Shown: positions 3,095-46,871 of the stretch, in pieces
Layout: every line of letters starts with the position of its first letter
Position numbering within the stretch: the stretch's first letter is position 1
NCBI RefSeq assembly: GCF_006345805.1
Contig: NC_043010.1
Span: 23,002,001 to 23,066,000 of the forward strand
Length of the DNA: 64,000 nt
Direction of reading: 5' to 3'
From: Octopus sinensis
Taxonomy: Eukaryota
The notes under the pieces: generated by a model
The model's database searches: none
Told to the model about the DNA's origin: nothing
Seen by the model: only the letters and a program-made list of their open reading frames with translations
Made by a program: the position numbers and the translations under genes

Positions 3095-3730
3095 TGTATG
3101 TATGTATGTATATGTAAGTATGTTTATATGTATATTGCACTTTATGTGTGTATCTACGTATCTTGTCTGCTGAAGATAAGGTAGGGCAATTTATGTACTG
3201 ATAACTGATAATGTCAATTGAGACCGAAACACATTTCCACAATTGTCCTTTTCTTTTCAGACCACAGACTGTCATTTCTTTAATGGCATCTGTTTTAGAT
3301 ATTCTTTGTCAATTCGTTAGATTATGTCGCTTCCTCATTTATATTTCTACCAACGGTTTGGTCTATCTTATGTATAAGGAGAGATAATTAAAAGGAATCA
3401 AGAATTTAATTTTTTTATGTTATTTAATATACTCCTCTTCAGCTATGCTGTCCAAGAGCCTGCTACTGGTAGTTCTGAGTTATGTATTTTGGTTCGTTTT
3501 AGTTTCATACATACATCATGAAGCTTATTTACATATGCATAGGTGCACGTGTGGCTGTGTGGAAAGAAGTTTGCTGCCCATCCACATAACCACATGGTTC
3601 TGCTTTCAGTCTCACTTTGTGGCAACTTTAGCAAGCGTCTTCTGCTATAGCCTTGGGCCGACCAAAGGCTTGTGGTGGATTTAGTAGACGAAATCTGTCG
3701 TGTATATATATATATATTCATATATAATTA

Positions 3731-14029: not shown

Positions 14030-14512
14030 GTCAATAATAAAAGGGTAAAATTAATTAATTATCAATTAATTTTACCAAGTAGTGTTCAGTATGTAAAAAG
14101 ACCATTTACGGTATATTTAAAACATTATGTTATATACTTAGGGTTCAGTAAAATAATTTACTTTACCACACACCGAACTTTTAGAAATAGCAGCCAAAAA
14201 ATCTTAGCTATTTCCTCTACTATAAGAAAAGTCTCCCAGACAATGTATACTCAAAAATAATTCACGCAGGTATAGAGGGAAAAATAACGAAAGATCACAC
14301 GTACATCGATTACTTGAGAACGCCGTTTCTGGATTAGTTGGATATAGAGATCAACATTTCCGTCATCAGCCCAAGATTTCTTTAGGTTTGGATTTGAGAG
14401 CACTAAAAATCGACCATACCCGTCTGATATGAGTAATCCCAGACAAACCATCTTCGACCGCTAGTACTAATGAATTCAAAAAATAGAAATCTTGGGCTGA
14501 TGACGGAAATGT
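14030..14512 (-). mobile_element. Penelope-like element terminal (pLTR) remnant with a short inverted copy
   Basis: Carries a type I hammerhead on the minus strand; perfect 28-bp inverted repeat 14354-14381 / 14485-14512. Confidence 0.6.
14313..14375 (-). ncRNA. Type I hammerhead ribozyme (PLE-type, short stem III)
   Basis: Minus strand: CTTGGG-CTGATGA-CGGA..TCCA-GAAAC-GGC-GTT-CTCAAG; stem I CTTGGG/CTCAAG, intact core, C-A mismatch at the base of stem II. Confidence 0.7.
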
Positions 14513-14562
14513 GCAAGTTGTTTGCAAGACATCTAAGACCTTGTGGTAGGTAACCACTGACA

Positions 14563-14658
14563 AACCGGAAAGACGGTTAGGCATCTTGGAAAGACAAGAG
14601 GACTGCTCGGAAAGACCAGCGGACAATAGGAAAGACTATCGACACCAGGAAAGACTGG
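14563..14658 (+). repeat. Array of five stem-loops with invariant GGAAAGAC in the HERO 5' leader
   Basis: GGAAAGAC at 14567, 14588, 14609, 14629 and 14648, each flanked by a different complementary stem. Confidence 0.9.
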
Positions 14659-14783
14659 CGGAGGCTGCGGACTTACGATCCTCGCCTCTGTATTTTATTG
14701 TAACAGACATAACAGGAAATGACAGCCCCACGATTGACCGAGAGGGGGGAGTCTAGAATCAATCAAACCCAGTCAGCACGGAA

Positions 14784-17700
14784 ATGACCTCTGAAACGAA
14801 CATGATTATTCATTCGAACAGCGAACGAACTGCAAACAACTTTGGATGCAAGCTGGGCTATAGAACCTTTGCAACTGAGAGAGGTTTGAAGATACATCAG
14901 GGAAAGACTTGTGAGAAGAGGACAGAGCAGTGTGGATCGTCAGATCGTAAAACACGTGGCAAATCATCCCCGGACTCAAACCACAGCGGATCGATAAATG
15001 CTACAGCAGAGAACTCTTCACGTGAAGAAACTACAAGTCATGAAACTGGTGCATCAGATAATATTCAGAGGAAACCGAGGGTTTTGTGGCCTGCTGCTAA
15101 TGAGAAAGTGAAATATAAAGAGTTTGAAAACAAGGTTGTCGGGCTCTTTATAAAATGACAGGCTCTACAGTGAGAAACTGGGAAAATTATCAAGCTCAAT
15201 ATACGATAGGAAAAGATTTATTTGTGGAATAAAAGAGAATATCCGACTAGAGAAAGGAAAGTGTGGACCAAGCAGAGGGGATCAGAAAAATGCAGCAGTT
15301 GAGGAAGGAAAAGTCCGACTTAAGAAAGCGATGGAGATGTGCTGCCTAGAGATGAGAAACCTGGCCTTGCGTTGCTGTATAACGATTTGAAGAGGAAATG
15401 TCGTTATGTGCAACGACATATCCGCCGATATGAGCGTCGAAAAGAAAGTAAAAGGACTCGGAGGCAGTTTCTGAAGGACCCGTACGGGTTTACTAAGAAG
15501 CTGTTCACTGAACCGAAGAGTGGTACTTTATCGTGCACTAAAGAAGAATTGGATGCTCATATCAAGGAAACCTACAGCGATCCGCACCGTAATCAGCCGC
15601 TGCCACCTCTACATGGGCTAAATCATCTCTCAGGACCTGATATCTAATTCCAGATTGGGGACATCAGGGAGAGAGAGGTGAATGATTTCGTAAGAAAAGC
15701 TAGAGCAAAGAGTGCCCCAGGAGGTGATGGCGTCTCATATAAAGTCTACAAATACTGCAATCGTCTGCGAAAGAATCTCTTCGTCCTAATCCGACAACTG
15801 TGGCGCGAGGAGACTATAGTAGAGGATTGGTGTAAGGCAGAAGGTATATACCTGACGAAAGAGGCCAATGCAAAGACCATAAAACAGTTTAGGCCGATAT
15901 CCTTATTGAATGTGGAAAGCAAGATCATTATGGGAATTCTGTCGAGGAGAACAGTGACATATTTACAGAGTAACGGATATGTTGATGAATCTGTTCAAAA
16001 GGCCGGAATCCCCGGGATCCCTGGATGCGTTGAACGCTGTTTTTCGATTTGGAAAGAGATCCAGGATGCCAAACAGAACAAGAAAAGTCTGAACGTGGTA
16101 TGGCTCGACCTAGCTTACGCGTATGGTTCAGTGCCACACAAATTACTAATAACAGCCATGGACCACTTCCACATTCCTGACAAAGTGATCAAAATAATGA
16201 GGATGTACTATGAAAGTTTCGAAATGAGGTTTACAACTGGAAATTTTACAACAAATTGGCACCGATTGGAGGTTGGCATTGCTGCTGGCTGTACAATATC
16301 TGTCACGTGGTTTATCTTAGTCATGGAGTTGATTTTAAAAGGTGTAGATTTTTCGGAACAAATCGCCCATGTACAATCGCCTAAGAAAGCCTTCATGGAT
16401 GACGTGACACTTCTAGCTACAGATAAACAAATCATGCAGAATGCCCCCTTTTGAGATTAGACGAACTTGTAAGGTGGTCAAGGATGCGATTTAGAGCAAA
16501 AAAGTCGCGTAGTCTGACATTTGTTAAGGGAGTGCAGAAAGAATTTAAATTTCGAATATCTGAAGAAAGCATTCCAACAGTCAAGGAAGAGCCCGTCAAG
16601 AGCTTGGGACGAGTATACGCTGGAACATTGTCAGACAGAAGTCGTGGGATTGAAATTATGAAACAGGCCGAGGCTGGGTTATCAGCGATTGATGTTTCGA
16701 AGTTACCAGGTAAATATAAAATTTGGTGCTTGCAGTTCGGCTTGTACCCGCGACTTGCGTGGCCACTTGTAATATACGAAGTAGCATTGTCACGAGTTGA
16801 AAGGATTGAACAAAAATGTAATGTGTTCATTAGAAAGTGGCTAGGTCTACCTCGTATGTTGAACAGCTCAGCTCTTTATCGTAAAAGAGGTTCGTTGCAG
16901 TTACCAATAGCATCAATAGTCGAAATATATAAGTTGGGGAAGATACGGACGGTCATGATGCTGAGAGAATCGAAGGATATGGAAATTAGGCGTAATGCAC
17001 CAGAGGTGAAAACAGCCAGGAAGTGGAAAGCAGAAGCAGAAACTGACAACATCTTGTCTTCTCTTATACACGGAGATATGGTGGGAGCAATGCAGAACCA
17101 TCGGAAAGGATTTGGTTTTGGCGCAGATCAGTTCAGACCGTTTGCAAGCATGATACCGTGTGAACGCAGATCTGTTGTTAGCAACAGCGTCAAAACAAGA
17201 GAAGCAGAGAGAAGAGAGCTTCATTTGATCCGATGTGTTCATCAAGGTCAGATGACGAGATGGGAAGAACATGTTGTTGAGAGGAAGATAAGTTGGGATG
17301 AGATGTGGAAGTGGACGACATCTCGGCTGAGTTTCCTGATTCGTTCATCTTATGATGTTTTGCCATCACCTACGAATCTAGTAAGATGGAACGTCTTAGA
17401 GAATGACATCTGCAAATGTGGAAAAGTCGGTACACTAAAACATATTCTTTCCAACTGTTCATTAGCATTGAACAGGTACACATGGAGGCACAACTTGGTC
17501 CTTAAGGTTATCTTCAATGCTATAAAGAACCAAATTCATCTCAACAACACTGAGGAAAAATCGTTAAAAGTACCATCAAGAGAGTTCATTACCTGTGCGA
17601 CCAGGTCAGCAGATCCGTTTCAAGAAGAAGACCAAGAAACTTCCTGAGAAAAATGAAAAGTGGAAAGGCTATTGGGAGGTAACTGCAGATTTACCTGGGT

Positions 17701-18077
17701 GCCAGGTTTTCTTTCCCATCTCAGTTTCGAAAAAACCACATATTTTGATGTGGTGTGAAAGAAAGAAAGTTGTAAATATAGTCGAGCTAACGGTTCCTCA
17801 CGAAGATAATATGGACGCCGCTCGAGCTCGAAAATTAAACCGTTATGAAAAGCTCCTCGAGGAATGTGAAGACGCGGGCTGGAAAGCGGAACATTTTCCT
17901 ATCGAAGTCGGATGTAGAGGGTTTGTAGGACACAGCGTGAGACGACTGTTGTTATCGTTAGGCCTAACTCATCGTAAAGTCAATACCACCATGACTGATA
18001 TCCAATCTACAGTGGAGAAGGCTAGCCACTGGATTTGGTTAAAAAGAGACGATGAGCGATGGCTAGAAGTATATTGA
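14784..18077 (+). pseudogene. HERO polyprotein (Zn finger - RT - CCHC - REL) broken by frameshifts and a stop
   Basis: Pieces 14784-15158 (C..RTFATERGLKIHQGKTC), 15339-15647, 15678-16454 (SAPGGDG, FRPISLLN, WLDLAYAYGSV, AFMDD), 16451-17647 (VKSLGR, CKCGKVGTLKHILSNC, RYTWRHN), 17595-18077 (KPHILMW, VELTVPHE, RKLNRY, IEVGCRGF). In-frame TAA at 15645-15647; the REL PD appears as PH. Confidence 0.9.
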
Positions 18078-18118
18078 GTTCTTCATAACCAGCTGATCTA
18101 GCAAGCGGGGCTTCATAT

Positions 18119-18204
18119 CAGTGAGGGGGGCCGGTGCGTACTGATGCCGTCGAGAGGTAGGCCCCGAAACGGCGCGCATTCTCTCCTGATGACCCCATAC
18201 ACTG
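18119..18204 (+). ncRNA. Candidate permuted/pseudoknotted hammerhead ribozyme in the HERO 3' UTR
   Basis: GUC triplet (18149-18151), GAAA (18166-18169) and CUGAUGA (18186-18192), with stem I GAGAG/CTCTC and stem III GCCGT/ACGGC in exact hammerhead register but non-standard strand order. Confidence 0.7.
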
Positions 18205-18269
18205 GCTAGCTTCCGATATACGGAGCTTTTAACCGGTAGCACTTGCATGTGCAAGTTGTTTGCAAGACA

Positions 18270-18439
<170 letters not shown>

Positions 18440-38311: not shown

Positions 38312-39652
38312 TGCGAAGTACATACAAAAAGTATCAGACTTTATTTTTCCCCGCCAAAACTAATGCTGTATGAGCAAACTCTTTTTGGGTGGGAGGTGAC
38401 GCTATCCTTCCAACGCATTTTTGTGCCGGTAAGCCGCACCAGTTCCCGGCTGTTACGCCTGGAGTACAGACGTGTAGAACTCGCTCAACTGATTTTCGTT
38501 TTCACATCAAGCTGAAACTACAAACCCATTTCTTATCACCGGTAATGTTGGTCTTCATGAAGTTTGGGTCATTGTTTGCACAGACCAGCATGTCCTGAGG
38601 TATTTCCATGCAGAGCTGCTTCCGCTGCTCCAGTACTTTGTGGAGGACTTTTGCCGACACACTCCGCATGCACAAATCCTCCGTTAAAACGGAATACACT
38701 AATCCCGTGCTTATTCTCACTTTGTAAGCAATTTCTTAGATTATCACACGACGGTCACCCATGACTATTCACCGAACCTTTTCAACAGGCTCCTCGTTTT
38801 GGCTTGTGGACGATCTACCAGAAAGTTCTTCGCTCTCCACTTAGTTGTGGCCGTGTTTGGAGCGGTTGTACCAATGACGTTAGCACGCCGGGTGAAATGC
38901 TTAGCGGTATTTCGTCTGCCGTTACGTTCTGAGTTCAAGTTCTGCCGAGGTCGACTTTGTCTTTCATCCTTTCAGGGTCGATAAATTGAATACCAGTTAC
39001 GCAATGGGGTCGATATAATCGACTTAATTCGTCTGTCTGTCCTTGTTTGTCCTCCCTGTGTTTAGCCCCTTGTGGGTAGTTAAAAAATAGGTATTTCGTT
39101 TGTCTTTACGTTCTGAGTTCAAATTCCGCTGAGGTCGACTTTGTCTTTCATCCTTTCGGGGTCGATAAATTAAGGACCAGTTACGCACTGGGGTCGATAT
39201 AATCGACTTAATTCCTTTGTCTGTCCTCGTTTGTCCCCTCTGTGTTTAGCCCCTTGTGGATAGTAAAGAAATAGGTATTAAGTCTGTCTTTAGGTTATGA
39301 GTTCAAATTTCAGGATCGATAAATTAAGTGCCAGTTGCATACTGGGGTAGATCTAATTTGAATTTTGCCCACGACATCATCGCCAAAGGCCTTTTGAATT
39401 TTCTAGATGTCTTCAGCTTGAATATCACCAAGCTTTTAGCAAAATGTGTTTCAATATCTCAGCCTGTTCGGTGGAAACGAAAATCCTACAAGCGCGCGCT
39501 ACACGACTCTACTCTTGGCGTAACAACCGATGACTGCAGCAGCTTACAAGCATCAGGAAGGATGTCGTTACTACCTGCCCAAAGAATTTTGTCCACGCGG
39601 CATTAATATAAGCGGAAAGAATGAAGTCGGATACTTTTGAACACACCTCGTA
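38312..39652 (-). mobile_element. Mariner DNA transposon remnant, interrupted by SINE B tandem (38877-39357)
   Basis: Minus-strand transposase pieces: KIQKAFGDD (HTH) and MRSVSAK...NDPNFMKTNITGDKKWV (ITGDE.WV motif); TIR-like TACGAGGTGTGTTCAAAAGTATCCGAC at the right end and a diverged match at the left. Confidence 0.75.
38877..39357 (+). mobile_element. SINE family B, tandem array nested in mariner
   Basis: Two full and one partial ~185-bp units. Confidence 0.8.
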
Positions 39653-45882: not shown

Positions 45883-46305
45883 GCGGCAAGCTAGCAGAAA
45901 CGTTAGCATGCCGGGAGAAATGCTTAGGGGTATTTCGTCTGTCTTTACGTTTTCAAATTCCACCGAGGTTGGCTATGCCTTTCATCCTTTCGAGGTCAAT
46001 AAATTAAATACCAGTTACGTACTGCGGTCGATCGAATCGATTGCCCCCTTCCCAAAAATTTTGGGTCTTGTGTCTCGAGTGGAAAAGGATAAAGGCGGCG
46101 AACTAGCAAACATTAGCATGCTGGGCGAAATGTTTAGCGGTATTTCGTCTGTCTTTACGTTCTGAGTTCAAATTCTGCCGAGGTCAAATTTGTCTTTCAT
46201 CTTTTCAGGGTCGATAAATTATGTACCAGTTACGTACTGTGGTCGATCTGATCGACTGCCCTTATCCCCAAAATTTCGGGCCTTGTGCCTAGAATAGAAA
46301 AGAAT
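45883..46305 (+). mobile_element. SINE family B, two tandem copies
   Basis: GCGGCAAGCTAGCAGAAACGTTAGC and GGCGGCGAACTAGCAAACATTAGC units. Confidence 0.8.
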
Positions 46306-46871
46306 ATTTTTATATGGCTTCTTTCATTTTTTTCTTCTTTCACTCATTACACTGCAGCCCTGTTGGGGCACCGCCTTGAAGGATTGTTAGTCAAATGAAT
46401 CGACCCACACCCACTACTTTCTTTAAAACCTGGTACTTATTCTGTCGGTCCCTTTTGTTGAACCTCTACAGGGAGGTAAATACTTCAACACCAGTTGTTG
46501 TCAAGCGGTGACAAGAAAAACACATACACATGGCGCAATATAATCCGTATAGACAAAATTTAGTCGTCAGTATTTGTGTCTGTATGTGCTACAAGCACAT
46601 ATATTGCTAGAAATAGCTGCGTTAAAGCACATTTATATATACTGACAGGAGAGACAACTGTCCCGTGAACAAAGCAAAACTAGAACATTTGACGGCACAA
46701 TTTCACCCCAAAGGGAATTGTCAATAGTGTGCTTCCAATGCCTCCATGCAGCAGTTATCTCCCCTGTCATTGTATATAAATGTGCTTTTGCGCAGCTATA
46801 AGTGGTTTAACTCTTATTACTAGCAATATGTATGCTTGTGGCACATACAGTCACAATTAGTGAGGTGTATA

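Follow-up and report, generated by a model that had tools for sequence, protein, structure and literature searches.

The 5′ leader of a retrotransposon in the genome of Octopus sinensis carries an array of five short hairpins that is almost certainly an RNA structure under selection. The array is directly joined to a hairpin resembling the anticodon arm of a tRNA, whose loop covaries with a non-AUG codon a short distance downstream. Judging from these sequence patterns, translation of the element, which we assign to the Hero clade, probably starts by tRNA mimicry, and on balance the array would be the upstream part of an element in the Hero 5′ leader through which ribosomes enter independently of AUG. 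The window analysed is a stretch of 64,000 nt (assembly GCF_006345805.1, contig NC_043010.1, positions 23,002,001 to 23,066,000 of the forward strand), and all coordinates below are positions within it.

The array occupies 14558–14658 on the + strand and consists of five UGAC-led hairpins with GAAAGA loops, the word GGAAAGAC occurring at 14567, 14588, 14609, 14629 and 14648. The hairpins, their coordinates, their periods of 21, 21, 20 and 19 nt, their linkers and both flanking hairpins agree with a preliminary description of this DNA. All five hairpins and the two flanking ones are included in the centroid fold of the + strand (z = −2.52, with 1 of 200 shuffles equally stable); folding of the minus strand is no less stable (z = −3.64). 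The longest run of GAAAGA-loop hairpins spaced by at most 25 nt was five in the window versus a maximum of two in 500 dinucleotide shuffles of it. The leading hairpin (14543–14557, + strand) has a variable loop, and its helix in relatives is paired in 80% of cells, with double changes at 4/4 pairs. An Rfam scan of the window at E up to 10 left the array unmatched and returned 14 matches, all by chance, and the leader matched none of the Rfam IRES families at E up to 10. The mismatch described in the third hairpin is indeed present in the window, and is corrected here to a subfamily change, most copies in the same genome being paired at this place: among 30 of them the strand reads CGAGC in 20 and CGAGT in one (both paired), eight have the mismatch and one was unparsed. 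The loop, which had been called invariant, is so within the window's own family; among relatives it follows the consensus G-A-N(1–2)-A-G-N. Their 78 parsed loops are 6–7 nt long and include GAAAGA (29), GAGAGA (12) and others such as GAAAGU and GAACAGA, with a UGAC lead-in in 58/78 and UGGC or AGGC in 11/78.

Relatives were obtained from a protein search (348) and from a scan of metagenome contigs, of which the best 80 of 295 loci were used; in many of these the 5′ end is missing. The array was detected 26 times in 25 of these 80 loci, with stems that differ yet pair, and with three or four units each. When 21 arrays were aligned by sequence alone, pairing was found in 82.0% of 762 cells, compared with 64.9% after shuffling and 31–41% in slid controls, and changes on both sides were seen in 30 of the 37 pairs. 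Cells changed on both sides numbered 153 vs 57 in shuffles; neither this count nor any other measure was reached by any of 500 shuffles, and such counts are not probabilities because the sequences are related. RNAalifold recovered 16 array pairs unaided, and G-U pairs outnumbered A-C mismatches 47:18, as a + strand RNA predicts. A covariance model, R1, scored the window, which was outside its training set, at 59 bits (E=5e-16) and five more untrained loci at 74–123 bits, with weak matches at L148, L128 and L125. Relatives thus keep the pairing as their stems change, in line with the selection on single-stranded structure that had been proposed. In a quickly built RT tree with 95 rows, the array-bearing loci are scattered through a clade of 89. 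One lineage (L099/L102) has a full leader and no array, with an in-frame AUG near the place of the paired codon. A basal group (L137, L139, L140, L141, L148) has a long leader without a clear anticodon-like arm and only two hairpins, with the loops GATTGG, GTAAGT, GAAAGT and GTAAGA by eye.

The array lies within a non-LTR retrotransposon of 3,738 bp (14536–18273), about 25 nt from its 5′ end, in a host genome of 2.7 Gb. A single ORF of Hero type (14700–18077, + strand) encodes a zinc finger, RT, CCHC knuckle and restriction-like endonuclease, and is broken by stops and frameshifts in the window copy. An RVT_1 match (E=1.6e-14) lies within 15648–16451, and the layout is that of the Hero clade, with one N-terminal zinc finger and with the RT followed by the CCHC knuckle and restriction-like endonuclease; the endonuclease motif was recognised by eye and is broken in the window copy. 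The closest solved structures are those of R2 proteins, which are far more distant from the family profile. By eye, the RT stretch is identical to HERO-1_BF at 50 of 85 residues, as printed in the supplements of two papers (PMC5678591, PMC7650587), and for this reason the element is treated as Hero. The host of the array would thus be a decayed Hero (R2-superfamily) LINE; Hero elements occur in the genomes of many animals. The Hero clade is described, in the available text of one report, as having some microsatellite preference and no strict target site (PMC4640811), and the 3′ flanks of the octopus copies, which are varied and often TA- or CA-rich, fit such loose targeting. Comparison of copies places the 3′ end of the element at 18247–18273 (+ strand), followed by a (TA)n run, and in a first look at the octopus genome candidate 5′ ends numbered 108 and candidate 3′ ends 2,315. 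A conserved C-rich/GAGA/G-rich block, seen in an alignment, lies some 10 codons into the reading frame (14727–14750, + strand) and may form a GNRA hairpin. The window also holds a SINE-like repeat of 184–215 nt in tandem copies at 38906–39309 and 45898–46306.

The 3′ flanking hairpin had been regarded as incidental, and this view is contradicted: the strongest functional signal lies there, in the form of anticodon–codon covariation. The hairpin (14659–14690, + strand) resembles an anticodon stem-loop, with a 7-nt loop at 14672–14678 and the 'anticodon' UAC at 14674–14676. The predicted partner of the loop, from covariation, is a GTA codon in the ORF frame (14700–14702, + strand; the frame of 14550–14756 and 14757–15158), the putative P-site codon, which is followed by ACA. 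Across 28 elements the first position of the loop is a pyrimidine in 26, the second is U or C in all 28 and the sixth is A in 21, and the closing stem is GGG/CCC in 20. Three G-C pairs in the anticodon stem are a hallmark of the initiator tRNA. In these 28 elements the middle triplet of the loop is complementary to a codon 19–65 nt downstream, the loop/codon types being AGC/GCU (17), GGC/GCU (5), AGU/ACU (2), UGC/GCA (2), CGC/GCA (1) and, in the window's family, UAC/GUA (1). Positions 1 and 2 form Watson-Crick pairs in 28/28; at position 3 there are 22 Watson-Crick pairs, five G-U pairs and one mismatch (L107). Decoding likewise has strict pairing at two codon positions and tolerates wobble at the third. 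Pairing at positions 1 and 2 was equalled in 15 of 200,000 permutations, and in 4 of 720 when each of the six distinct types was given one row.

Because curation of the sites had partly used the pairing, checks blind to it were made. An anchor in the DNA fell within 1 nt of the pairing site in 23/28 elements, four of the misses being a clade with a 12-codon insertion, and an anchor in the protein gave offset 0 at 17 of 21 sites, while no other offset between −6 and +6 had more than two. In a sequence-only alignment, loop–codon covariation was 0.206 vs 0.111, a value reached by 0/500 shuffles, and the loop–codon changes fall on separate branches of the quick RT tree. The paired codon is in frame at 20 of the 21 sites with a readable zinc-finger frame; four of those 21 lack an in-frame AUG upstream of the zinc finger, and some elements have AUGs nearby. 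Of 120 database proteins, 19 could be anchored, and these have A (14), V (3), T (1) or M (1) at the paired codon, followed by T in 16/19, with their called start methionines scattered; by eye, P0087 also has Met at this place. In the octopus genome the GTA is kept in 30/30 copies and the UAC triplet in 29/29 parsed loops. Met is found 10 codons downstream of the paired codon in four close proteins (P0011, P0017, P0024, P0042) and in 2/30 of the octopus copies, and an AUG lies just before the paired codon in L109 and just after it in three elements. The predicted pseudoknot is merely 3 bp in several elements, an extra hairpin below the anticodon arm is present in some relatives and absent in others, and L096 has the array and no clear anticodon loop.

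Immediately before the 5′ end lies a 27-nt copy of the element's own 3′ end (14509–14535, + strand), identical to 18247–18273, which makes a head-to-tail junction. A target-site duplication was rejected as the origin of this repeat; other copies carry the same junction, with 3′ pieces of variable length. Among the 30 best 5′-end loci, 28 have a piece of 27–982 nt of their own 3′ end abutting the 5′ end with no spacer, and the other two have about 9 nt; these represent about 16 independent loci, because 14 have identical breakpoints and two have common flanks. The same junction was seen in 9 of 10 further loci. Many of the upstream pieces extend beyond the predicted ribozyme cut at 18151 (see below), which is easier to reconcile with a template that was circular, or concatemeric and uncut, than with a linear, 5′-trimmed RNA. 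The upstream piece has more minor alleles in common with its own 3′ end than with any other at 5 of 13 loci, with one tie and seven that were uninformative or not best. Four sequencing runs, guessed to be of RNA, gave contigs spanning the array, three of them in the joined 3′–5′ form; as proof of circular RNA this was ruled out, the form existing in DNA as well.

Some further features of the copies and their junctions were observed. Internally deleted copies that keep both ends (L004, L006, L007, L011, L017, L027, L039, L182, L183, L187, L188), retrieved with the 5′ end as the query, have differing breakpoints, mostly at element positions 640–825 and 3110–3440, and are possible non-autonomous mini-elements; L007 and L017 have a common 5′ breakpoint at different sites, and one deletion was also found in two sequencing runs. 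At the 5′ junction of the window copy, 14354–14381 and 14487–14514 are a 28-nt inverted copy of the flank that overlaps the first 4–6 nt of the element, and this may have arisen by a template switch onto nearby DNA during integration. The flank (14300–14485) belongs to another dispersed repeat with 436 candidates, among 40 scored examples of which the inverted piece is unique to the window locus. In L145 (2492–6546) the 3′ UTR before the array is unlike that at the contig end, so that the locus is either a junction of two subfamilies or an assembly chimera.

The 3′ UTR contains a hammerhead-like core with a non-standard strand order (18127–18192, + strand) and a predicted cut after 18151. Across 20 elements its four helices are paired in 94% of 371 cells, with double changes in 89 cells vs 22 when shuffled and at 18 of 20 pairs. 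Stems I–III and the core nucleotides follow the S-G-C order, and U3-A8 replaces C3-G8 in L104, L109 and L110. The fold is like that of the type-SGC hammerheads as presented in the available part of PMC10085705 in the order site-GAAA-CUGANGA, a short linker between stems I and II, and an extra joining stem. It differs from them in that CUGANGA is not directly continued by a strand of stem II, the 5′ strand of which instead lies upstream of the whole core (PMC10085705). The word GGAAAGAC is absent from the supplement of that paper (Eckert et al. 2023). In relatives, a hammerhead core lies 64–118 nt upstream of the first detected array loop at 16/16 junctions, picked from the 25 array-bearing loci for a 3′ UTR-like upstream part; collapsed assembly of tandem copies may contribute to these joined arrangements. 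Just before the hammerhead, nine loci (L096, L111, L117, L120, L124, L129, L130, L145, L166) have a hairpin whose loop is a palindromic 6-mer (TGATCA, TGGCCA, TGTACA or GACGTC), resembling a kissing or dimerisation loop, which is not obvious in the window copy.

Hero is not the only setting of the UGAC/GAAAGA hairpin. A search with a pattern of two units gave matches in 31 viral contigs and in 49 stretches of prokaryotic genomes, and in only two viral contigs when the spacer was made one base longer. In the 65 distinct matches, 81 of 130 hairpins had their three free base pairs intact, vs a shuffled mean of 10 and maximum of 22; the remaining hairpins include chance matches in ORFs. Among these 80 loci the module lies within 14 tmRNAs, both bacterial and phage (12 identified by ARAGORN and two more by Rfam), and it also occurs upstream of tRNAs and some 100 nt downstream of a 16S rRNA, which are untranslated places. 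Elsewhere it stands 23–67 nt before genes led by a Shine-Dalgarno sequence, which it often abuts, the products being phage proteins and secreted-looking proteins. One locus (L195) has the order hammerhead, array, tRNA. Three tombus-like RNA virus contigs have leaders with 5–7 units, with an RdRP_3 match (E = 1e-74) beyond a readthrough stop; in L193, one of these viruses, 10 AUG triplets lie upstream of the AUG of the ORF. At gathering score, Rfam found only tmRNA, tRNA, rRNA and hammerhead in 40 prokaryotic and viral loci, and no match was obtained for 15 loci at E up to 0.05 or for the three virus contigs at E up to 0.1. Taken together, its occurrence in tmRNA, in tRNA leaders, in the mRNA leaders of bacteria and in the leaders of RNA viruses suggests an RNA module, absent from the catalogues, that is shared across domains.

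Several of these loci have other features of note. The tombus-like contig L273 (1–562 and 3370–4480) has a 560-nt leader with seven units and a 1.1-kb non-coding 3′ region with hammerhead-like words. Two units lie in a conserved, non-coding-looking phage/Bacteroidales region in L196, L197, L202, L210, L214, L219, L232, L251, L255 and L264, for which Rfam gave no match in L196 and L232. By eye, a second Shine-Dalgarno-like sequence occurs just upstream of the hairpins in L234, L237, L238, L248, L258 and L261, which are prokaryotic leaders of secreted-looking proteins, and it is sometimes accompanied by a tiny ORF that ends in the array. A search of viral contigs with TGAC-N5-GGAGAGAC-N4-TGAC was set aside, as its 11 matches were mostly a Shine-Dalgarno sequence plus AUG, without paired stems; a further pattern gave a single match, by chance.

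These observations suggest a mechanism in which transcription through a tandem copy would give an RNA that is cut by the hammerhead and probably rejoined as a circle, and reverse transcription from a fixed internal point, more than once round the circle, would leave the head-to-tail junction. Hero RNA is probably uncapped because its copies are head-to-tail with a permuted hammerhead fold. In the ribosomal P site, pairing of the anticodon-like arm with a codon would set the frame, with decoding beginning at the codon after the paired one, mostly ACN. The array would act as an affinity domain that contacts the ribosome or a conserved ribosome-associated factor, doing what pseudoknots II and III do in dicistrovirus IRESs. 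That it serves translation at all is the weakest step, since the module also precedes tRNAs and sits in an rRNA spacer, and it is a step towards which we lean slightly. The complete picture, of a ribozyme-cut circular RNA translated without AUG or initiator tRNA, with few or no initiation factors and with a hairpin docking module found across domains, is put forward tentatively, as something less than an even prospect.

The type 6 (intergenic region, IGR) IRESs of dicistroviruses engage ribosomes independently of initiation factors and initiator tRNA. As far as described in the available text of two papers (PMC10275262, PMC12221177), they are like Hero in domain 3/pseudoknot I, having a mimic of the anticodon stem-loop and a downstream codon mimic, and, as predicted for Hero, they set a non-AUG frame. 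The extra hairpin of domain 3 is optional among Hero relatives, as it is between types 6b and 6a (PMC10275262, PMC12221177), and the Hero leader (~150–190 nt) is of similar size to a type 6 IRES. However, pseudoknots II and III, L1.1, SL-IV and SL-V are absent in Hero, which has 3–5 like hairpins instead. Because pseudoknots II and III are missing, the Hero leader is placed outside the type 6 family and is like it in domain 3 only. Unlike in a type 6 IRES, the Hero mimic often pairs with a bare codon and with third-position wobble; its stem ends mostly in three G-C pairs, as in the initiator tRNA, and its host is a retrotransposon rather than a virus. GCU, which in Hero is the paired codon, is in most type 6 IRESs the codon decoded first. 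Some predicted type 6 structures bind ribosomes and do not support translation, according to the available text of PMC12221177. A second comparison is with R2, for which the available text of one paper gives the mechanism of translation as unknown and a Met codon as not required (PMC13580325), and which has an HDV-like ribozyme at its 5′ end (Ruminski 2011, as cited in the available part of PMC13725137). R2 and, as predicted here, Hero would have in common an uncapped retrotransposon RNA that is processed by a ribozyme and needs no AUG for its translation; the R2 ribozyme is at the 5′ end, whereas in Hero the hammerhead-type fold lies in the 3′ UTR and the covarying start signal is a feature apart from it.

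Arrays in which numerous short hairpins share a loop word and are free to vary in their stems are familiar from lambda boxB, the MS2 operator and CsrB/RsmZ, and the Hero array is like the boxB and MS2 type in its repeated hairpins, constant loop and exchangeable stems. BoxB has a GNRA-like pentaloop and MS2 a bulged-A tetraloop, and the Hero loop, with its 6–7 nt, its G-A-N(1–2)-A-G-N consensus and its UGAC lead-in, is of neither type. Unlike lambda boxB, the MS2 operator and CsrB/RsmZ, the module occurs in eukaryotic elements, phages and bacteria. The K-loop, the site of L7Ae/Snu13, has tandem G-A/A-G, invariant adenines and a loop of at least 3 nt; it was ruled out as the array loop, in which the last position varies between A, U, G and C and 2–3 nt separate GA and GN. 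The preliminary description had read the array as a multivalent aptamer for the element protein or a host factor. The first option loses ground as the unit, its stems covarying, recurs in unrelated prokaryotic and viral records, and a conserved host factor, or a fold that is complete in itself, is more likely. The recurrence of this hairpin in tmRNAs of bacteria and phages, in leaders of tRNAs and mRNAs and in tombus-like virus leaders makes a partner specific to the element unlikely; for a module common to bacteria, phages and RNA viruses, the Hero protein is a less likely partner than some conserved component of the translation machinery or than the RNA itself.

Other readings of the array have to be weighed against a role in ribosome entry. 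It could be a general module of RNA processing or protection, which marks or shields the 5′ boundary of the structured molecule once a ribozyme or RNase P has cut it, or aids its folding, with the tRNA mimic alone starting translation. Where the module sits before tRNAs and in an rRNA spacer, protection or processing is the simpler role, and its presence inside tmRNA, the hammerhead–array–tRNA order of L195 and the short distance from hammerhead core to array at all 16 junction loci examined (64–118 nt) also agree with it. However, the tmRNA module is internal, the mRNA-leader module often touches the Shine-Dalgarno sequence, a circular Hero RNA, if it is so, has no end needing protection, and in Hero the array passes straight into the anticodon-like hairpin; we consider this reading rather unlikely, and give it more weight than those that follow. 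A less probable reading is that the array binds the element's own protein, either positioning reverse transcription at an internal start 5′ of the array or loading the protein in cis. Insertions do end 25–30 nt before the array on the joined RNA, the internally deleted copies keep both ends despite their varied breakpoints (the 5′ end having been the query), and R2 UTRs bind R2 protein, as stated in the available text of PMC13580325. On the other hand, this is hard to square with units in bacterial, phage and RNA-virus RNAs, with a loop consensus that stays constant as proteins diverge to 37–72% identity, and with the L099/L102 lineage, in which the array is missing.

A cluster of m6A sites or of purine motifs like those bound by splicing factors, through which a eukaryotic reader would drive cap-independent translation or export, seems improbable. 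DRACH is the m6A consensus, and the UGAC-H and AGAC-H words of the array are DRACH-like in an RNA that is probably uncapped. Yet the A is replaced (UGGC, AGGC) in 11 of the 78 lead-ins, the stems show covariation, and the motif is also preserved in bacteria, which are not known to have this pathway. A neutral product of tandem duplication, which the gain and loss of units (three to five per element, and one fewer in the octopus copy L190) might suggest, can be dismissed, as it is refuted by array covariation, with compensatory changes in every helix among elements at 37–72% protein identity, and as the exact spacing matters in viral matches (31 vs 2 with one base more).

In the literature within reach of the search, which did not extend to figures, Repbase notes, subscription papers or bioRxiv supplements, the Hero leader array, the tRNA mimic and the head-to-tail junction are undescribed, as is the GAAAGA hairpin module in work on tmRNA pseudoknots and phages. 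Intergenic-type IRESs in non-LTR elements were raised in a 2013 review, in its available text as speculation only (PMC3894237). How translation of R2-superfamily elements starts without a cap or a required AUG is posed as an open question in the available text of PMC13580325, and for Hero the predicted start site, frame and compensatory pairs mean that a few reporter mutants suffice as a test. If the proposal is true, the true N-terminus of Hero proteins would be fixed, where gene callers now use scattered AUGs, and the leader, at ~150 nt, would be a compact candidate IRES for use in circular RNA. It would also mean that a class of factorless IRES exists outside viruses, together with an RNA motif for docking to the ribosome that crosses the domains of life.
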